From: a virus
Taxonomy: Duplodnaviria > Caudoviricetes
Direction: 5' to 3' (one strand)
Length of the DNA: 35,962 nucleotides
Virus record (IMG/VR): IMGVR_UViG_3300032024_000154
Span: 1-35,962 of that record
The position numbers and the translations under genes are program-made. Under the pieces are notes generated by a model that worked only from the letters and a program-made list of their open reading frames with translations, was not told the DNA's origin and made no database searches. Within the stretch, counting starts at the first letter, position 1. Every line of letters begins with the position of its first letter. Below are positions 4,769-35,818 of this stretch, piece by piece.

Positions 4769-7700
4769 TTAAGGCCGGTCCACGTCGCCACGGAACGCGA
4801 TCGAAAACACATCGCTGTCGAGCGATGCCGGACCCTGCAGCACGGTGCGCACGGCCCAGAATGGCGCGCCGGATGCCGCGGTGTTGAAGCGCAGCACATT
4901 GCCCACCGCCCAGCTCGCGCCCCAGCCCAGCGCCGGCAAGGTGAAATAGGCGGCGCCCGTGGCCGGGTTGATCGGGGCCGCATCCGCGCTGGTGCTGCCT
5001 GTGCCTATCACGCCGACCGACTCGCCGACGATGTTGAAGGCAGTCGTATTTGTAAAAATCATCGCCCAGCGCTCGGTGATGGCGCCGCGGTTTGTAGTGA
5101 CGATCGGGAACTGGCCCTCGTTGAAGTTGGCCAGCGGCGCAGCGCCTATCAGGGCGTCGCTCCAGACGCCGGTCCAGGTGATCTGCTCAAGGTAGTTGAA
5201 GGCGCGCGAGAACAGGTCGCCAAAGGGCAGCGCACTCGATACAAACGAGGTGGTGGCCGGGAAGCTGTGCGTCAGGCTGCGCGTGAACTTGAGCAGGCCC
5301 GAGATGTCGGCCTGACTGGTCAGCATCATGTCCTCGATCCGGTGCTCCACCGTCAGCGGCTGGGTGTAGGCCGTGATGACGGAGGCCGTGGGCACGGTGA
5401 TGGTGCCGGGATTGAGGTCGCTCACATACAGGCTGCTCGGCACCAGCGCGCCCAGCGCGTCCTTGATGCGGACACTGGCAATGCGCTCGCGGCCCAGCGC
5501 ATAGACCGTGCCTTTGACCAATGGGTTGGGCAACTGCGTGGTCAGCGTGTTGTGCACCACCACCAGGTCGCCGGTGCGGTAGATCGGCACCTTGCCGTCC
5601 AGCGGCAGGCGCACGGTATCCAGCCCGAGCAGGTCTTTATTGAGCGGCAAGAATTGCAGGAACACGGCGTTATAGGTCAGCGCCGCCGGGTCTATGGGCG
5701 CGCTGGCGGCCCAGCGCACCACGCCGCGCTGGTAGTCCACCGTGCCGCTCCAGATGCTGCCTGTGATCACGCCGGAGTCGTTGGCGCTGGCCACGTTGCC
5801 TGGCGTCTGCATCTGATAGACGCCCGTCTTTAGCGGCGCGCTGGCGGTGCGGAACACGCCGGTAGCAACGCTTTTTGCAGCCAGGTCCTGCGCCAGGTTG
5901 TACCAGGTCACGCCGTTGGCGAAGTCGCTGGGCAGGCTGCTGATAGTGATCAGTCCGTCGCTGCTGACCACGCCGGCGTTGGCCGTTGTGGGCGCGCCGG
6001 TCAGCACGCTCCAGCCGCGCTGCAGCACATTGCCGGATGCGAAGTAGTTTGAGCCGCCGATGCGCAGCGCAGCGCCGTCAACCAGCGGTGGGCCATTGGT
6101 GGCGACCGACATGACCCATGGGCCGGGCGCAAACGGCAGCGGCGTGCCAGCGGCGGGTGCGCCGCCAGCGTAAGCCACAGCGGTGATCGGCGACAGCAGC
6201 GTCACCACCGTGACCGCCAGCGGGCTGGAGTTGACGCTAGCGCCGCCTTGCCAGCCGGTCACGTTGGTCTCTGTGCGGTTGGGCAGCTCCATGCTGACGC
6301 TGGCATTGAGCGTGACAGCGCCGGTGGCGTAGTTGATGGTGCCCGCGGCGACTGACTTTTTGCGGTGCCTGATAAAGATCACGCCATCGGCGTCATACAG
6401 GCTGAGCGGACTGTCGGCATACTTCGGCACCACCGTTAGCGGATAGGTCACCAGTACGCTGGCGCGGAAGCTGCCCTTGGTGATTGGCAGCGTGCCGGTC
6501 AGGGTGTAGGCGCCGCCGCTGCCGGTGAACACGGTCTGGTCCGCAGCGCCAACGTCGCCCGTGATCGTGACGTTGGCATCAGGAAACACGTTGGGCTCGA
6601 ACGTCAGCACGCCGTCGGCATAAGTACCGGTGGCGTCGCCCGTGAGGACGCCTGCGGCATTGGTGCTGGCCGTGTAGTTGGTGACGCCACGCGTCCAGGC
6701 CACGGCGATGGCGTCGGCCTTGGTGCGGCTGCCGAGCGCGATCTGCATGCCAAGCCGCGCCGGCAGACCAGACACCAGCACCGCCTTGGCCGATGACACG
6801 TCGCCCCAGTCCGCGAGCAGCGGGCTGCCGACATCGGGGATGGCCCCGAGCGTGACGGCCATGGAGCCGGTGCCATAACTGAGGGTGCCCACGCCCACGC
6901 TGCCGTCAAGCCCGGCGAGCTTGCCCGCCAGGTTGTCTTTCATCTCATACCAGCGGCCTTGCGCCATATAGCTCAGGGTAAAGCTGCCGGGCGGCGGCGC
7001 CGGGCTGAACACGTTGGTATAGGCCAGCCCCTGATTGGCCGTGCTGACAATCAGCGAGGCGCTGTACGACGAGGCCCCTACCAGAGAGGCGGGGCGGTAG
7101 GTTAACGTGAGCGGCTGCGTGCCGTAGCTCGGCGCTCCCGGCAGCATCGTGGCAAGGCGCGACTTGTAGTCCACGGTGCCGACGATCGTCGTGCCTTCCT
7201 TGAGGTTGCCCGCGCTGTCGTCTGCAAACAGCGTGGCGCCGTGGGTAAAGCTGAAGGACCCGGGCTCTATGGGCGTGGGCGTGGCAACGATCGCGTTAGG
7301 CCCGAGCAGCATGCTGACCGCAGTCAGTGCAACGGGCGCGTAGGCGGTGGGTATGACGGAGGCGCGGCCCAGCAGCGGCGCCTGGTCAGTGATCGGGCTC
7401 TCAACCGTGGCGGCGGGCACCACGGCGCTGAAAATGCCGCCGGCAGCCGTCACCGAGAAATCACCCGGCACACCGGGCAATGCCAGCGGCTTGATGCCAT
7501 AGAACGCCGCGCCATTGGCGACGTTGGTGCCAAACGATTGCGCAAAGTTGGCCTCGACCAGGCCGACGCGGATGGCGGGCGGGCCGGCAAAGTCAAAGGC
7601 CAGCGGGTTGCCGATGTCGCAGGTGGCGACGCTGGCGGGCAGCAGCAGGGTCGAGCCGTTTTCAACCACGGCCACCGTCTGCGTGGCCGTGGCCACGCGC

Positions 7701-8191
7701 AGTATGCGCACATATTCTTCGTCGCCGTTGGGGTTGCGCAGCACGATGGCGTCGCCGCCGGCGGGCGGCGTGCCGCCGACCAGGCTGATCAGGCGTATCT
7801 GCAGGCTGCCGGCGAAATGCGGATCCCACAGCCGGAAGGTGATCTTGGGGCCTTTGACCAGGTATTTTTCGATGCTGTCTTGGGCTGCGGTGCGAGTGTC
7901 GGCCCAGTTTGCCGTGCGCATCAGACTGGCTTGCACCAGCGGGTCGGCCGGGGCCTGAGTGACGATGACATGAGCGCCCATCAGGGTGTCGGTGTCGCTG
8001 GTGTGCGCCACGCCAAACAGCTTGCGCAGGTTGACGCGGCCAAAGGCGCGGTCCATCGCCGAGGTGTCCGGGAAAAGGTTGTTGCTCTGGCCGTCGATCA
8101 CTGCAATGCCGGTCATGGCGCCGCCGCCCTCGGGCACGTCGGCCATGACGGCGGATTTGAGGAGTTTGATGTCTTCGGTGAGGATTGGCAT
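4769..8191 (-). CDS. large tail-tip/central fibre protein (1140 aa)
   Basis: N-terminus DIKLLKS...GGG..TG..V.DG..NNLFPD.S..DR..GRVNLRK typical of this tail type; repeated G.VDY.TG beta motifs. Confidence 0.8.
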   Translation of the reverse strand: MPILTEDIKLLKSAVMADVPEGGGAMTGIAVIDGQSNNLFPDTSAMDRAFGRVNLRKLFGVAHTSDTDTLMGAHVIVTQAPADPLVQASLMRTANWADTRTAAQDSIEKYLVKGPKITFRLWDPHFAGSLQIRLISLVGGTPPAGGDAIVLRNPNGDEEYVRILRVATATQTVAVVENGSTLLLPASVATCDIGNPLAFDFAGPPAIRVGLVEANFAQSFGTNVANGAAFYGIKPLALPGVPGDFSVTAAGGIFSAVVPAATVESPITDQAPLLGRASVIPTAYAPVALTAVSMLLGPNAIVATPTPIEPGSFSFTHGATLFADDSAGNLKEGTTIVGTVDYKSRLATMLPGAPSYGTQPLTLTYRPASLVGASSYSASLIVSTANQGLAYTNVFSPAPPPGSFTLSYMAQGRWYEMKDNLAGKLAGLDGSVGVGTLSYGTGSMAVTLGAIPDVGSPLLADWGDVSSAKAVLVSGLPARLGMQIALGSRTKADAIAVAWTRGVTNYTASTNAAGVLTGDATGTYADGVLTFEPNVFPDANVTITGDVGAADQTVFTGSGGAYTLTGTLPITKGSFRASVLVTYPLTVVPKYADSPLSLYDADGVIFIRHRKKSVAAGTINYATGAVTLNASVSMELPNRTETNVTGWQGGASVNSSPLAVTVVTLLSPITAVAYAGGAPAAGTPLPFAPGPWVMSVATNGPPLVDGAALRIGGSNYFASGNVLQRGWSVLTGAPTTANAGVVSSDGLITISSLPSDFANGVTWYNLAQDLAAKSVATGVFRTASAPLKTGVYQMQTPGNVASANDSGVITGSIWSGTVDYQRGVVRWAASAPIDPAALTYNAVFLQFLPLNKDLLGLDTVRLPLDGKVPIYRTGDLVVVHNTLTTQLPNPLVKGTVYALGRERIASVRIKDALGALVPSSLYVSDLNPGTITVPTASVITAYTQPLTVEHRIEDMMLTSQADISGLLKFTRSLTHSFPATTSFVSSALPFGDLFSRAFNYLEQITWTGVWSDALIGAAPLANFNEGQFPIVTTNRGAITERWAMIFTNTTAFNIVGESVGVIGTGSTSADAAPINPATGAAYFTLPALGWGASWAVGNVLRFNTAASGAPFWAVRTVLQGPASLDSDVFSIAFRGDVDRP

Positions 8192-16683: not shown

Positions 16684-16732
16684 GACCGCACTGTCGCGCG
16701 GGGCGCCCGGTCAGGCTAAGTAAAGCGCTTTA
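16684..16732 (-). promoter_or_regulatory. late promoter with Mor/C-type activator dyad
   Basis: perfect palindrome TAAAGCGCTTTA 16721-16732; -10 GACAGT 16695-16690; ATG 6 nt later, 43.5 bp from dyad centre. Confidence 0.75.
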
Positions 16733-28869: not shown

Positions 28870-28925
28870 GGCTTTTTTGTGGTAACTTGCGGTGTTACAG
28901 GGGATCAATTAATCAGGAGGAAGTC

Positions 28926-29255
28926 ATGCCGGATGAACCAGATATGCAATCGCCGCTCACATCACAGCAACTGGAAGAATGGGTGGGTGTGGTGGAGGAC
29001 AAGGCTTGGGACGCACAGGCAGAGACATCAGCCTGCCGCTTTCTGCTCGGAAATCTGCTTGCCGAGTTGCAAGGCATGGGGCTGCTTGATGCCAGTGCAT
29101 TCATCACAAAGCTGCGCTCGGCACTGCCGCCAGACATGGACAACGCGCAGACGCGGATAGGCATTGCTGATTTGCTGGATGATCTGCAGCTGTTTTTTCA
29201 CGGGCAGCCCAAGAGCAGCCCGGGCGAAGGCAGTCCAGGCGGTGTGTCCCATTAG
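28926..29255 (+). CDS. small acidic helical accessory protein (109 aa), antisense to early operon
   Basis: AGGAGG RBS before ATG 28926. Confidence 0.75.
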   Translation: MPDEPDMQSPLTSQQLEEWVGVVEDKAWDAQAETSACRFLLGNLLAELQGMGLLDASAFITKLRSALPPDMDNAQTRIGIADLLDDLQLFFHGQPKSSPGEGSPGGVSH

Positions 29256-29337
29256 GGTGAACGCGGCAAAGCTGTGCGGGGCGTGGCATGTACACATCAA
29301 ATTTCTTTGCGGGGTCCTTGGGTTTAATGAGGGTCAT
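29104..29337 (-). CDS. first ORF after early promoter (77 aa), overlaps + strand gene
   Basis: AAAGGAC-A7-ATG start; most of the ORF is antisense to 28926-29255. Confidence 0.4.
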   Translation of the reverse strand: MTLIKPKDPAKKFDVYMPRPAQLCRVHPNGTHRLDCLRPGCSWAAREKTAADHPANQQCLSASARCPCLAAVPSAAL

Positions 29338-29388: not shown

Positions 29389-29418
29389 ATTATGCGGCAC
29401 GTTCGTTTCTAATGTCAA
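29389..29418 (-). promoter_or_regulatory. early lytic promoter (sigma70)
   Basis: minus-strand TTGACA (29418-29413), 18 nt, CATAAT (29394-29389) in AT-rich divergent region. Confidence 0.75.
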
Positions 29419-29438
29419 TAATTATTTGAGGAATATTT

Positions 29439-29843
29439 GCGCCTCTTATTTCTGATCGTTTGCGCAAACAGCGAGAAATGCTCGGTTTGAGTCAGCAGGC
29501 GCTGGCAGACCGCTGCAATATCTCGGCGCGATCGCAGCGCAATTACGAGTCAGGCGAGCGACTGCCAGACGCCGCCTACCTGGCAGCGCTGGCTACCCTT
29601 GGGGTGGACGTCCTTTACATCCTCACTGGGAGGCACGCGGCTGCGCGGTACACGACCGCTAGGTCTACCGCTGGACTGCAAGTGTGCGAACCTGACCCGC
29701 CGCCTTATCTGAGTCCGATCTCCAGGCGCGAGCGCGCGTTGCTAGACAACTACGAGGCAGCCGACGAAGCGGGGAAAAAAGTCATCGAGGGCACGGCAGG
29801 TCTGGCAGCGCAACCGAAGGCCGCGCGATGCGGCAGCAAATGA
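29439..29843 (+). CDS. Xre/CI-type repressor (start codon anomalous)
   Basis: ISDRLRKQREMLGLSQQALA...YESGERLPDAAYL...GVDVLYILTG; first canonical start is TTG 29460, but GAGGA RBS points to GCG 29439. Confidence 0.88.
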   Translation, partial: APLISDRLRKQREMLGLSQQALADRCNISARSQRNYESGERLPDAAYLAALATLGVDVLYILTGRHAAARYTTARSTAGLQVCEPDPPPYLSPISRRERALLDNYEAADEAGKKVIEGTAGLAAQPKAARCGSK

Positions 29844-29872
29844 GACTGTTTTTTAAGTGGGAGTATTGAGTC

Positions 29873-30298
29873 GTGAAAATCAAAATACTGTGGGCCGCCT
29901 TGCTGCTGGCCACCTCGCCCGCCTGGGCCATCAATAAATGCACCGGGCCCGATGGCAAGGTAACCTACCAGGAAGCCGTGTGCGAAGGGGGCAAGAAGAT
30001 AAACATCAGCGGCGCTGGCCAGGCCGATCCGAGTTCAAACGTGTCGAACTACTGGAGACGCGAGATCGCACGCCAGACTCGCAATGAAAAAGTGGAGTCG
30101 GCCATTTCCGAGGGCCGTGTGTTCATTGGCATGGAGGCCGACGATGCGCGCCGGTCATGGGGGAATCCCACCAAGATCAATACGTCAATTGGCAGCTACG
30201 GCAAGCACGAGCAATGGGTGTACGAGCGCAGGAATTCCAGGTCTCAGTACGTTTACATTGAAAACGGCGTGGTGACCAGCACGCAGTCGCCGGAGTAG
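29873..30298 (+). CDS. exported DUF4124-like protein with C-terminal small beta domain
   Basis: signal peptide ending AWA; INKC.GPDGKVTYQ..C; IGM...A..SWG.P...EQWVY. Confidence 0.8.
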   Translation: MKIKILWAALLLATSPAWAINKCTGPDGKVTYQEAVCEGGKKINISGAGQADPSSNVSNYWRREIARQTRNEKVESAISEGRVFIGMEADDARRSWGNPTKINTSIGSYGKHEQWVYERRNSRSQYVYIENGVVTSTQSPE

Positions 30299-30395
30299 TT
30301 GTGACCTGAAAAACCGGTGAAGAAATGTTTGAGTTTTTTGCCACCAACAACCGGGCTGCCATGCCTGGCGCTTTGATTACGAAAAGGGAAAAATC

Positions 30396-30688
30396 ATGAA
30401 TGAACTGGCCTCTGGCGTCTATCTGATCTATGGCGCAATCATTCTCGGCGGAGCACTGGTTATCGGGCTATGGAAAGGGCGCGTTCTGGCGGCCCTGCTC
30501 TGGTCTGTCGTCCTCGGCCCGATAGGCTGGGCATCGTGGCCTTGGGCCCCAACCTAAAGGCGGTGCAGTCGGTCGATTGCCCGCACTGTGGCAAGACGCT
30601 GCCGATGCACCAGGTCGATTGCAATCACTGTGCCAATAAAGTTACATGGATCGCCGGCAAAGCGCGCAAGCCGTCACGCGTTGCCTAG
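30396..30688 (+). pseudogene. membrane protein with C-terminal Zn ribbon, frameshifted at ~30529-30531
   Basis: ATG 30396 frame gives TM-KGR-TM-LGPIGW and stops soon after; adding 1 nt continues IVALGP...CPHC..CNHC to TAG 30688. Confidence 0.7.
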
Positions 30689-31016
30689 CTGGAGTCGTCT
30701 CAAAAGCAGCAGATGAACCGAGTCCTGGCGTGCGAGGCGATGTTGGTGGCCGTCGTTCGACGGCTTGCGCCTCAGGCTCTGGCGGGGGTTTTGGAGGAAT
30801 ACGACGCGGCGATTGATAGAGCGGCCGCGCAGCTTGATCCGGCGCTGCAGATGCCGGATGTCTGGCAGCAAATGTCAGACGGGCTAAGAGACTTTGCAAA
30901 ATCTGTTGACTCTGCGCTGGGCATGCAGCAGAGCCAAAAACCCGGCGCAGGCTGACCCGGCCGAACGCGCGGTCCATCGCCTCGGCGTCTTGAAAAATGG
31001 GGGCGCTGCGACTCAT
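30642..31016 (-). CDS. ORF with N-terminal copy of tail-tip motif; rest antisense to + strand genes
   Basis: residues 7-28 match tail protein residues 39-60 (15/22 identical); ATG 9 nt after upstream stop; weak RBS. Confidence 0.5.
   Translation of the reverse strand: MSRSAPIFQDAEAMDRAFGRVSLRRVFGSAACPAQSQQILQSLLARLTFAARHPASAAPDQAARPLYQSPRRIPPKPPPEPEAQAVERRPPTSPRTPGLGSSAAFETTPARQRVTACALCRRSM
30713..30955 (+). CDS. small helical accessory protein (80 aa)
   Basis: amphipathic helical sequence; last gene in repressor-orientation cluster; 5' end uncertain. Confidence 0.7.
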   Translation: MNRVLACEAMLVAVVRRLAPQALAGVLEEYDAAIDRAAAQLDPALQMPDVWQQMSDGLRDFAKSVDSALGMQQSQKPGAG

Positions 31017-31025
31017 GCCACGGGC

Positions 31026-31109
31026 CTATGCACTGTGGTCATCGTCTGGCGGCTTGCGCGGCCCGCCCTGCATGAGCCAGACCCACAAGTAAAACCAGAT
31101 CGGGTTCAT
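31026..31109 (-). CDS. 27-aa hydrophobic peptide (MNPIWFYLWVWLMQGGPRKPPDDDHSA)
   Basis: ATGA overlap with stop of upstream holin-like gene. Confidence 0.45.
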   Translation of the reverse strand: MNPIWFYLWVWLMQGGPRKPPDDDHSA

Positions 31110-31288
31110 GCTTGCCCCTTGGCGGTTGCCTTTTGCGTGACGTTGCCGGCGATGTAGGCGCCCACCGTGGCAATGACCACGGCCGAGTAAACGCCGTCGG
31201 CAATGTGGCCAAACCACGTCAGCAGGGTTGCGCTGAGCAGCGCGAACAGCGCGAGCAGGAATTTGCGGCTGGATAGGCGAGCGATCAT
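31106..31288 (-). CDS. holin-like two-TM protein (60 aa)
   Basis: AAGGAG RBS; SRKF-TM-G.I-TM-YI.GN..QK pattern of small phage membrane proteins. Confidence 0.75.
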   Translation of the reverse strand: MIARLSSRKFLLALFALLSATLLTWFGHIADGVYSAVVIATVGAYIAGNVTQKATAKGQA

Positions 31289-31304
31289 GGGTTTCTCCTT
31301 AAGA

Positions 31305-31390
31305 GCCTGCATCGTGCGCCTCACAACGCGCAGGCAATAAACAAAGCGCTTTATTCACGCGCCCGCACGCGCCCGCGCGAACATGTGGAC
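31305..31390. promoter_or_regulatory. bidirectional late promoter around Mor/C-type dyad
   Basis: AAAGCGCTTT 31343-31352; -10-like GAACAT (+, 31379-31384) and CACGAT (-, 31316-31311), each starting 31.5 bp from dyad centre. Confidence 0.7.
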
Positions 31391-31606
31391 ATGCCGACAA
31401 AGACCACGCCGTCACAGCCACAGCCCCTGCAAAAGTGCAGCGACTGCGCGCGCTTTTCTACCGAGCATGCATCGCTGGCGCACCTGGGTTTTGGGCAGTG
31501 CAATTTGCAGCCTGGCTACACGCAGATGAGCGTGTACGCACCCTGCCATTTCGCCGCAAGCCGGTTCGAGCCCAGACCCATTACCACCACCAGGAGCCCC
31601 GCATGA
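31391..31606 (+). CDS. small Cys-rich protein (71 aa), probably leaderless
   Basis: CSDC...C...C pattern; ATG 6 nt after -10; ATGA overlap with holin. Confidence 0.65.
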   Translation: MPTKTTPSQPQPLQKCSDCARFSTEHASLAHLGFGQCNLQPGYTQMSVYAPCHFAASRFEPRPITTTRSPA

Positions 31607-31980
31607 ATGACCCCATACCCACCCGCCGCCGCTCGCCGCTGCGCATGAGTGACTGGCTGCTTGCCGCCGTGCTGCTGACGGCGCTGGTGTGGCTGATCGC
31701 GCCGCAGCAGCTCCCGGTGAGCATCTACAAGCTCAGCCTGGTGGCGCTGGCGGCGGTGGCGGGCTACTGGATTGACCGCAGCCTGTTCCCCTATGCGCGG
31801 CCCGATGTGTTTTTGACGGTTGAGACGGAAGACGACGATTTCAATTTCGACGACGATGAGGCGAGCGTCATGCTGCATGCCGCACCCCATGACACGCTGA
31901 TGCGGGTGATGGGGGTTTGCATGTTGCGCCGCGCGATCATTGTGGCGGCGACGATGCTGGCGGTGGGGCTGGGGGCGTGA
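31603..31980 (+). CDS. putative holin (2/3-TM family of Mu-like phages)
   Basis: AGGAG RBS; PQQLPV..YKLSLV...GYW.DRSLFPYARP...RRAIIV; precedes endolysin. Confidence 0.85.
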   Translation: MNDPIPTRRRSPLRMSDWLLAAVLLTALVWLIAPQQLPVSIYKLSLVALAAVAGYWIDRSLFPYARPDVFLTVETEDDDFNFDDDEASVMLHAAPHDTLMRVMGVCMLRRAIIVAATMLAVGLGA

Positions 31981-33540: not shown

Positions 33541-33838
33541 CCATGCACGGCTGCGGCGCGAGGCGCTGCGCTGGCTGATTATCCTGACGCTCAACAACGC
33601 GCGCCCGGTGGGCGCGTTTGAGCACCTGGTGCTGACGGTGGCGCAGAGCGAATACCCGGACGCCTCGGTGCTGGAGCTGCGGCGCGAGCTCGACTATCTG
33701 GCCGAACGCGAGCTCATTAGCCTGAACAAGCAGCCCAATGGCAAGTGGTTTTGCGCGCTGAGGCGCCTGGGCATAGACGTGGCCGAATACACGGTGGACT
33801 GTGAGCCCGGCGTGGCGCGTCCGGCCAAATACTGGTAA
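33530..33838 (+). CDS. Mu gp26-like winged-helix protein (102 aa)
   Basis: GGAGG RBS; RRELDYL..R.L...G.DVAE...PGVARP. Confidence 0.8.
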   Translation: MQIDHARLRREALRWLIILTLNNARPVGAFEHLVLTVAQSEYPDASVLELRRELDYLAERELISLNKQPNGKWFCALRRLGIDVAEYTVDCEPGVARPAKYW

Positions 33839-33845
33839 CTCAGCC

Positions 33846-34418
33846 ATGGGCCGCAAATCAACCATTTCCCGGCTGCCGCCGGATGTAAAAAGCTACATCG
33901 AGGGCAGGCTGGCGGCGGGCCGCCACACGCTCGACGAGCTGATTGCCGACCTGCACGCGCGCTTTCCAGAGCAGCAGCAGGCGGGCGACCTGCCCAGCCG
34001 CGCCGCGGTGCACCGCTACGGCCAAAAGCTGGAGCGCCGCCTGAGCGCGATTCGCGCCAGCACCGAGGCCGCGAAGATCATCCAGGCGCAGGCGGGCGAC
34101 AACAATGATGCGCGCAGCGAGGCGCTGACGGCGCTGATCCAGACCGAGCTGTTTGAAGCCATCCTCAACCTGCAGGAGGCCGACGATCCGGAAGCCGACC
34201 CGGCTGATCGCGTGGGCATGCTGAGCACGGCGGCCAAGAACATTGCCACGCTGACGCGCTCAAGCGTCAACCTCAAGCAGTTTCAAGCGAAGGTGGAGGA
34301 TGAAACCCGCCGCAAGCTGCTGGAAGAGCAGCGCGCCAAGCTTGATGCCATGGGCAGCAAGGGCGGTGTGACCGAAGACACCAAGAAGGCCATCCGCGAA
34401 GCGCTGGGGATAAGCTGA
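33846..34418 (+). CDS. small terminase, Mu gp27/DUF3486-like
   Basis: MGRKSTI..LP, SRAAVHRYG motifs; directly before TerL. Confidence 0.85.
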   Translation: MGRKSTISRLPPDVKSYIEGRLAAGRHTLDELIADLHARFPEQQQAGDLPSRAAVHRYGQKLERRLSAIRASTEAAKIIQAQAGDNNDARSEALTALIQTELFEAILNLQEADDPEADPADRVGMLSTAAKNIATLTRSSVNLKQFQAKVEDETRRKLLEEQRAKLDAMGSKGGVTEDTKKAIREALGIS

Positions 34419-35818
34419 TGAAGTTCAAAGGCCAGGCCAAGGTGATCCCCGCGAACACGGACGGCATTTTCCTGCCGTTTCAAAGCCGGTGGATCACCGA
34501 CAACAGCCGCCTCAAGCTGATGGAAAAGTCGCGCCAGATCGGTATCAGTTGGGCGTCTGCCTACGCCGCCGACGAGCGCACGGCCGCGCAGGGCGCGCGG
34601 TTTGACCAATGGGTGAGCAGCCGGGACGATCTGCAGGCGCGCCTGTTCATTGAAGACTGCAAAATGTGGGCGGGTGTGATGCACCTGGCGGCGAAGGACC
34701 TGGGTGAAGTGGTGCTGGACCCAAAGGACCGCATCAGCGCCTACGTGATCGAGTTTGCCAGCGGCAAGCGCATCCACAGCATGAGCAGCAACCCGGACGC
34801 ACAGGCCGGCAAGCGCGGCGGCCGCATTCTGGATGAGTTCGCCCTGCACCCGGACCCGCGCAAGCTGTGGGCCATTGCCTACCCCGGCATCACCTGGGGC
34901 GGCAGCATGGAGCTGATCAGCACGCACCGGGGTTCGCACAACTTTTTCAATCAGTTGATCCGCGAGGTGCGCGAGCACAAAAATCCCAAGGGCATCAGCC
35001 TGCACCGCGTCACGCTGCAGGATGCGCTGGACCAGGGATTTCTGTTCAAGCTGCAGCAGATGCTGCCCGCCGACGATGAGCGCCAGGCGATGGACGAAGC
35101 GGCTTACTTCGACTTTGTGAAGTCGGGCTGCGCCGACGCTGAGAGCTTCGAGCAGGAATACATGTGCAACCCGGCCGATGACGACGTGGCCTTCCTTGAA
35201 TACGGTTTGATCACCGCCTCGGAATATGCCGCCGGCGTTGACTGGCAGCAGATCGGCAGCGGGCGGCTGTTCGCGGGAATCGACATCGGCCGCAAGCACG
35301 ATTTGACGGTGCTGTGGGTGTTTGAGCAGCAGGGCGACGTGCTGTACACGCGCCACGTCGAGGCGCTGCAAAACATGCGCAAAAGCGAGCAGGAGAAGAT
35401 TCTCTGGCCCTGGATTGAGCGCTGCGACCGCACCTGCATCGACCAGACCGGGCTGGGTATTGGCTGGGTCGATGATGCGCAGGACAAATACGGTGAGAGC
35501 CGGGTCGAGGGGGTCAATTTCACCGGGCAAACCAAGGAAGCGATGGCCTACCCGGTGCGCGGCGCGATGGAAGACCGCACCCTGCGCATCCCTTATGACC
35601 CTAAAATCCGCGCCGACCTGCGCCAGGTGACCAAGCAGGTCACACCGACGGGCAATATCCGTTTTACGGCCGAGCGCACAGCGGATGGCCACGCCGACCA
35701 TTTTTGGGCGCTGGCGCTGGCCAAACAGGCGGCTTCAAACCCCTCCGCGCCCATCGAATTCATGAGCAGCGGCCCGCGCGAGTCCGCGCAGCTTGGAGGT
35801 TTTTCTTATGGCTACTAA
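34418..35818 (+). CDS. terminase large subunit, Mu gp28-like
   Basis: LPFQ..W, EKSRQIGISW, ILDEFA, ISTH.G, GIDIGR..D, IDQTGLG, HAD.FWALAL. Confidence 0.95.
   Translation: MKFKGQAKVIPANTDGIFLPFQSRWITDNSRLKLMEKSRQIGISWASAYAADERTAAQGARFDQWVSSRDDLQARLFIEDCKMWAGVMHLAAKDLGEVVLDPKDRISAYVIEFASGKRIHSMSSNPDAQAGKRGGRILDEFALHPDPRKLWAIAYPGITWGGSMELISTHRGSHNFFNQLIREVREHKNPKGISLHRVTLQDALDQGFLFKLQQMLPADDERQAMDEAAYFDFVKSGCADAESFEQEYMCNPADDDVAFLEYGLITASEYAAGVDWQQIGSGRLFAGIDIGRKHDLTVLWVFEQQGDVLYTRHVEALQNMRKSEQEKILWPWIERCDRTCIDQTGLGIGWVDDAQDKYGESRVEGVNFTGQTKEAMAYPVRGAMEDRTLRIPYDPKIRADLRQVTKQVTPTGNIRFTAERTADGHADHFWALALAKQAASNPSAPIEFMSSGPRESAQLGGFSYGY

Follow-up and report, generated by a model that had tools for sequence, protein, structure and literature searches.

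A lysogeny-region gene overlapped antisense by a copy of a tail-protein motif: a conserved module of temperate phages and a possible inhibitor with a target-mimicking decoy antidote

Antisense defence modules in temperate phages

Four described systems resemble in layout the locus analysed here. Tha-1 and Ith-1 belong to Staphylococcus aureus phage 80alpha (PMC11087260). Tai and Ati occur in phi80, PICIs and P4-like satellites, where Tai prevents tail assembly by way of the central tail fibre and Ati is a counter-defence that acts by binding (PMC11364771). Tab and anti-Tab of Pseudomonas phage JBD26 are a tail-assembly blocker and a late antidote that bind each other (PMC10884400), and TerI and anti-TerI were described in Listeria phage phi10403S (bioRxiv 10.1101/2025.02.27.640495).

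The window, that is the whole stretch of DNA analysed here, is a whole virus record of 35,962 nt, and its PHROG matches identify it as a transposable phage (Table 1). As in Tha/Ith, a gene of the lysogeny region that lies on the same strand as the repressor has a small overlapping antisense partner (PMC11087260); in the family described below, such a partner overlaps the repressor-strand gene at all ten loci whose DNA continues beyond its stop, a count of sequence layouts and not of transcripts. As in Tai/Ati, the accessory gene lies nested antisense within a lytic operon that also contains its cognate counter-defence (PMC11364771), here a predicted one; this nesting is seen in loci G013, G252, G253 and G254 and, through a promoter-like site, in the window. 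TerI is a 65-aa defence gene transcribed in lysogeny and nested antisense in an early lytic module, in a hot spot where small genes alternate with self-immunity proteins, a layout like the one here (10.1101/2025.02.27.640495). The earlier note on this DNA had put forward Tab as the precedent: blocker and antidote lie on opposite strands there, as the predicted pair does here (PMC10884400, compared by description only), but the position of Tab differs, its target is the tape measure, and Tha/Ith and Tai/Ati are closer by layout.

Table 1. Coordinates of the features discussed, in the window unless another locus is named.
Feature	Position	Strand	Remarks
124-aa antisense ORF, predicted decoy antidote	30642..31016	-	own ATG start
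22-codon tail-motif copy	30933..30998	-	51/66 nt, 15/22 aa
LLxRLT segment, absent from tail protein	30873..30890	-	partly dictated by + gene
27-aa ORF	31026..31109	-	ends 9 nt before ATG 31016
60-aa hydrophobic ORF	31106..31288	-	first gene of leftward operon
Late-promoter-like site facing peptide operon	31311..31352	-	palindrome AAAGCGCTTT, 26 nt, AnnnT
Late-promoter-like site, rightward lysis genes	31343-31384	+	same palindrome as 31311..31352
Late-promoter-like site before head and tail operon	16690..16731	-	
80-aa gene, predicted inhibitor or sensor	30713..30955	+	5'-truncated member of ~100-aa three-helix family
8 remnant codons of family N-terminus	30689..30712	+	
Membrane and zinc-ribbon gene	30396..30688	+	frameshifted near 30530; abuts truncated family gene
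Repressor-like HTH gene	29460..29843	+	heads + strand accessory run; PHROG match
Tail, head, late activator and transposition genes	149-28908	-	PHROG matches
Late activator gene	16889-17314		matches phrog_532
Lysis and terminase genes	from 31603	+	PHROG matches
Terminase genes	33801-35818		adjacent to each other; PHROG matches
1140-aa tail protein, predicted target	4769..8191	-	phrog_6128; second gene after tape measure
Tail motif, residues 39-60	8012..8077	-	
Second-family locus	L162 5037-5312 (-) with 4934-5212 (+)		
Second-family loci	L160 3813-4103 (-), 2682-2927 (-)		
Second-family loci	L151 6776-7027 (+); G014:31211-31460		

The copied tail motif and its conservation

The stretch at 30933-30998 aligns without gaps to 8012-8077 in the tail gene, with 51 of 66 nt identical and a longest exact run of 15 nt, and on the minus strand 15 of its 22 residues are identical to tail residues 39-60, all as the earlier note had reported. 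Eleven codons are identical, four differ synonymously and seven non-synonymously (four of the seven conservatively). The pair is the best direct repeat of the window in a self-blastn comparison (E 2.7e-8; next direct repeat E 0.002), and blastp recovers it at E 7e-8. Among 70 short ATG-led frames between 28400 and 31700, ORF 30642-31016 (from two ATGs) was the only one with a match to a large protein encoded elsewhere in the window.

Residues 39-60 are among the most conserved positions of the tail protein N-terminus. Homologs of this protein are annotated in some isolates as tail fiber (RS138, AS1) or virion-associated protein, and the tail of Curvibacter phage PCA1 is identical to that of the window at all 22 residues. 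The motif falls inside a part that AF2 left unmodelled (residues 1-91, pLDDT under 50); sequence searches found no solved relative of the N-terminus, and its best Foldseek matches were the Klebsiella K1 capsule lyase (E 1.3e-3) and the phi92 tailspike (E 9e-3). The PCA1 match and the matches L002 and L003 were rejected as stand-alone copies, all being tail genes. So was a weak match in G041 (L152, G041:32503-32571), which is the N-terminus of another frame, of 340 codons; this frame starts with a distant form of the motif, which suggests from its sequence that the tail N-terminal domain occurs in shorter tail proteins too.

DNA of eleven distinct loci of the family was compared: the window, L004, L005, G013, G252, G253, G254, G255, G256/G257 (the same sequence over the stretch compared, and counted once), G258 and G259. 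The DNA of L005 stops at the stop codon of the + gene, and the counts therefore refer to the other ten. In every one of these ten an ATG-led antisense frame overlaps the 3' end of the + gene, and a stand-alone motif is kept beside the same + gene in nine, in eight of them in the same register, where the stop codon of the + gene falls across the V-S codons of the motif copy. This retention, together with many synonymous differences and a DNA identity among the peptides of only 31-43 of 66 nt, bears out the proposal that the copy was constrained as protein. The register is fixed across + proteins that are only about 30-45% identical, in transposable and in lambdoid-type phages.

Motifs were scored with a profile built only from 28 distinct tail motifs, against 1,122,958 null 22-mers (maximum 6.7). 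Six loci scored in register above every one of the null 22-mers (window 49.4, G253 36.1, G254 34.0, L004 32.5, G257 29.7, G013 12.9). G252 (L155) scored 5.0 (four null windows as high), G255 (L165) -1.4 (22 as high), and G259 (L172) 5.5 nine codons upstream and out of register. In G258 (L171) the score was not significant, most of the motif being lost, and the gene and a canonical tail motif were kept. The 14 codons outside the overlap, taken alone, scored within the top 0.16% or higher at each of the seven loci tested, and hhalign matched the peptide profile to the tail N-terminus with probability 96.9 (E 1.4e-10).

Members of the tail family occur in the window, G013, G253, G254, G255, G257 and G258; the three carriers without a match are genomes 35-54% complete. 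A blind search covered 50 virus records, 40 selected by the tail protein and 10 by the endolysin, being the longer ones among 80 and 43 loci. The motif occurred in 43 of the 50, and only G013 had two matches; G013 was also the only record with the + gene, which lies 5 nt from the second motif on the opposite strand.

The copy had been described as one of the phage's own tail motif. The peptides follow the motif of the family rather than that of their own genome, but the own tail is tracked in part: own peptide-tail pairs were closer than shuffled ones (P 0.013-0.015 for amino acids, 0.001 for nucleotides; n=7, kinship not controlled), a signal driven by the window and G257, and the own tail was the best match of only three of seven peptides, one of them the degenerate L171 (kinship again not controlled). 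The window peptide is nearest in DNA to its own tail (next best 48 of 66 nt among 82 tail stretches). Recent copying from this gene was not borne out by 51 against 48 of 66 nt.

The overlapping genes and their neighbourhood

The antisense ORF measures 95-109 aa in the relatives measured. The earlier note had regarded its remainder as just the antisense of the + gene. The long open frame is indeed mostly explained by the + protein, but an LLxRL(T/S)-type segment recurs about 20 residues past the motif and is common to most relatives; judged by its sequence, it is possibly a second binding helix. As proof of a full-length protein the long frame was discarded, because synonymous recoding of the + gene leaves it open (P 0.012-0.78); an open antisense frame was found in only 2 of 72 control blocks.

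Peptide ATGs lie close behind, or overlap, the stop of the upstream gene, several with G-rich ribosome sites. The window peptide ORF has no clear Shine-Dalgarno sequence, and the 27-aa ORF before it would couple its translation. Pfam and PHROG searches with the 60-aa ORF at the head of the operon gave no match. The arrangement palindrome-26 nt-AnnnT hexamer occurs at exactly three sites in the window; the pattern was drawn by eye from these sites, and the comparison with shuffled sequence (5 matches, allowing up to 2 mismatches, versus 1.7 expected) is therefore no independent test. Such palindrome-type sites presumably bind Mor-type activators. The late genes of the window are split between a leftward arm with head and tail and a divergent rightward arm with lysis and terminase, and one palindrome (31311-31384) appears to serve two divergent late promoters.

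The peptide ORF had been called late-expressed, a description that suits the window, where it stands behind the late-type promoter-like site, but not the lambdoid-type relatives, where it is part of an early operon: in G013, G252 and G254 the stop of a cro-like gene overlaps or immediately precedes the peptide ATG, and in G253 the peptide lies further down the cro-like operon (cro assigned by eye). From this layout we infer that both phage types express the peptide frame lytically, late in the window and early in the lambdoid type; its partner lies on the repressor strand. No RNA dataset containing 29400-31700 was listed; the two DNA datasets listed are both possibly the source.

The 80-aa gene at 30713-30955 singled out earlier is a 5'-truncated member of a 101-aa family. 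In the window, the end of the zinc-ribbon gene takes the place of the family's codons 1-13, start and ribosome site; its stop directly precedes the eight remnant codons, and the Leu22 codon of the relatives is an ATG. The letters of 30396..30688 are identical in Logan contigs, which are possibly the source DNA itself. Without its 21 N-terminal residues the predicted inhibitor of the window may well be inactive.

Four close homologs of the window gene have 101-119 aa and 76-83% identity. Searching the 50%-identity representatives with a profile gave 37 proteins at E<=0.001, one of them a 1751-aa outlier; 31 of the profile-search proteins and five close homologs make up the family alignment of 36 sequences. 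AF2 predicts helices at 3-38, 41-60 and 69-90 in the intact relative P0004 (pLDDT 88), and the family appears as an unannotated one of about 100 aa with three predicted helices. PADLOC (2023 copy) matched none of its 36 members, two of the 36 weakly matched one unnamed PHROG, the window's member had no Pfam match, and no catalytic domain was found in the ~100-residue protein. Foldseek gave no match at E<=0.001 in PDB or BFVD; the best VIA match (Z 6.7) was to generic helices, the fold being a generic helical hairpin or bundle, and in the ESM Atlas (best 0.89) an IraP cluster at 0.88 is a lead only. No family member was found in annotated phages, plasmids or 201 genomes drawn from the phylum of G051, or in viral contigs with the window protein alone as query. 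The names attached to one family member suggest Comamonadaceae (Burkholderiales) as the host group.

Locus L006 was dropped as a spurious match. In another transposable phage, the same slot in L040 holds a 97-aa gene at 7121-7414 (+), overlapped by an antisense ORF of different sequence at 7284-7523 (-); its similarity to the family is weak, and homology was not established (hhalign probability 15.4). Within the window, an unannotated ORF of 105-122 aa at 28887-29255 (+) is nested antisense in the early operon and overlapped by its first ORF, 29104-29337 (-), a layout the same as that of the tail-motif module; the frame 29104-29337 (-) matched no large protein of the window.

A second small-gene family occupies the same hot spot in G013, G252 and G253 (two copies), and its antisense frame carries an F-x-A-W-x-x-x-K/R-R-F-V motif. 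A profile of the four peptides matches a frame of 570-620 codons in 3 of 3 records (E 5-7e-7), with no match in G254 or G257. The matched segment is alike in G013, G252 and G253 except for one residue, and in G013 it falls in the DUF5906/VapE-like domain of a protein that we take to be a primase-helicase. Among the 50 records of the blind search, G014, which had no part in building the profile, has the gene, an adjacent antisense peptide and the match in the large frame, and G021 has two weak, unlinked second-family matches. Homology between the two small-gene families was not established (hhalign probability 4.4). In G253, the gene that immediately precedes the tail peptide (L160 2945-3271 (+), G253:11193-11231) has at its end a stretch weakly similar to the helicase-like peptide motif (E 0.01). 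Upstream of the tail-motif module, at about 3380-3800 in L169/L170, lie a third small gene and an antisense ATG-led frame, the gene being flanked by a duplicated stretch of ~45 nt that contains the peptide start; the third peptide (G256/G257) has no match elsewhere in its own genome.

Proposed mechanism, rival readings and known systems

The two-gene overlap is real and conserved across temperate phages. The reading that we favour, at a probability of roughly 0.55, is that it combines a lysogenic inhibitor of tail assembly with a lytic decoy antidote that mimics the target. The ~100-aa helical protein, likely made in the lysogen, would bind the motif on the nascent tail protein of a related invader and so stop its tail assembly; the antisense peptide, likely made only in lytic growth, would soak up the inhibitor and let the owner build its tails. 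On induction the peptide would outcompete the tail protein of its own phage, and its extra hydrophobic segment and antisense transcription may contribute to this. If the window inhibitor is inactive, the peptide would act there as an orphan counter-defence against lysogens with intact relatives. The timing of expression, the binding, which of the two partners acts as effector, and a block of assembly rather than killing are all inferred from layout and conservation. A decoy acting at the tail stage is less expected from an early promoter, which counts against this account, although Ith-1 likewise had to be made early (PMC11087260). Also against it are the lack of any PADLOC match in the family, its generic fold, the loss of most of the motif in G258, the incomplete tracking of the own tail, the position of the motif in the unmodelled part of the tail protein, and the truncated gene with its frameshifted neighbour in the window. 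Co-folding of two P0004 chains with the cognate 45-aa peptide (score 0.28, mark 0.32, without controls) counts neither way.

The same early peptide of the lambdoid-type carriers would suit an inhibitor needed before its trigger, and the layout matches that of Tha/Ith (PMC11087260), both of which speak for a sensor-toxin: binding of the tail motif would trigger growth arrest (abortive infection, Tha-like), and the peptide would occupy the sensor without activating it. With three plain helices in 100 residues, no catalytic domain, and a perfect trigger mimic that would tend to activate the sensor, we consider this unlikely, though it deserves to be kept in mind. The roles could also be reversed, with the peptide as effector, either a toxin or a dominant-negative mimic of the tail, and the ~100-aa protein as its antidote. 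The conserved extra hydrophobic segment of the peptide would fit such an effector, but its frame lies in lytic operons and should be off in the lysogen and on while the phage builds its own tails, and the + gene is on the repressor strand; this exchange of roles seems improbable.

Tail proteins are common immune triggers (PMC13728456), and in the window a peptide of high fidelity stands next to a + gene that is truncated, as might be expected if the peptide were a decoy for an immune sensor of the tail motif encoded by the host or another element and the + gene an unrelated neighbour. Against this, the second motif copy occurred among the 40 tail-selected records only where the + gene did, and the register is fixed across divergent + proteins and both phage types, which makes an unrelated neighbour quite improbable. 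There is little to recommend a role in self-regulation, where the pair would time the phage's own assembly or replication (a chaperone or brake with a release peptide): the target tail family is present in every near-complete carrier, but the gene is accessory, being found in only one of the 40 tail-selected records, and truncated in the window. A functionless recombination scar of the tail gene, which the earlier note had tied to a copy not conserved in relatives and which the closeness of the window's own tail DNA would favour, is very improbable and largely refuted, because nine of ten loci keep the motif despite synonymous divergence, each peptide with its own start, and because gene and motif co-occurred in the blind search.

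If an inhibitor with a target-mimicking antidote is what these loci encode, the target of an unknown defence protein could be read from the opposite strand. A prophage whose defence is aimed at virion assembly has to protect itself, and the mechanism of such antidotes is for the most part little understood; an antidote in which the target sequence can be recognised would reveal, with no screen, what is bound and at which epitope. Whole genomes could then be searched by one rule, namely for short antisense frames with similarity to an essential protein encoded by that phage, and the helicase-matching second family suggests that the rule finds more cases. At even odds, temperate phages of Comamonadaceae-type hosts carry modular cassettes, several stacked after cro, each pairing a small helical inhibitor of an essential phage protein with an overlapping antidote that spells the target epitope; at least two unrelated targets would be in use, the N-terminal motif of the tail protein and part of the DUF5906 primase-helicase.

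Compared with the described systems, Tha recognises a minor tail protein as its pattern, and here a tail protein is the predicted target (PMC11087260). Tha is a 301-aa HEPN RNase (PMC11087260), in contrast to the ~100-aa helical protein without a catalytic domain found here; its C-terminal HEPN domain with an RX4H motif has no counterpart in the three-helix proteins. An orphan inhibitor without the defence gene exists in phi7206 (PMC11087260), and the window may be alike. The main text of PMC11087260 does not term Ith a mimic or decoy, whereas the partner here is a sequence copy of the target. Tai/Ati, compared by description only, has a target of a different family, and Ati is not described as target-like in the available text of PMC11364771. 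The Tab genes lie between the terminase genes (PMC10884400), whereas the module here, at 30642-31016, lies apart from terminase genes that are adjacent to each other at 33801-35818; the target of Tab is the tape measure, and the motif copied here comes from the 1140-aa tail protein. Anti-Tab is not termed a mimic or decoy in the available text of PMC10884400. TerI targets the terminase in a Gram-positive host, and anti-TerI is not termed a mimic or decoy in the available text either (10.1101/2025.02.27.640495); the short frames of the window showed no similarity to the terminase. We found no report of an antidote that is a sequence copy of its target, including in the available text of 10.64898/2026.01.04.697583 and PMC13728456, in a full-text search of main texts, for the most part of papers outside subscription. 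The layout of the locus is thus of a known kind, that of Tha/Ith, Tai/Ati, Tab and TerI, and what would be new, judging by the sequences, is an antidote that copies the sequence of its target.
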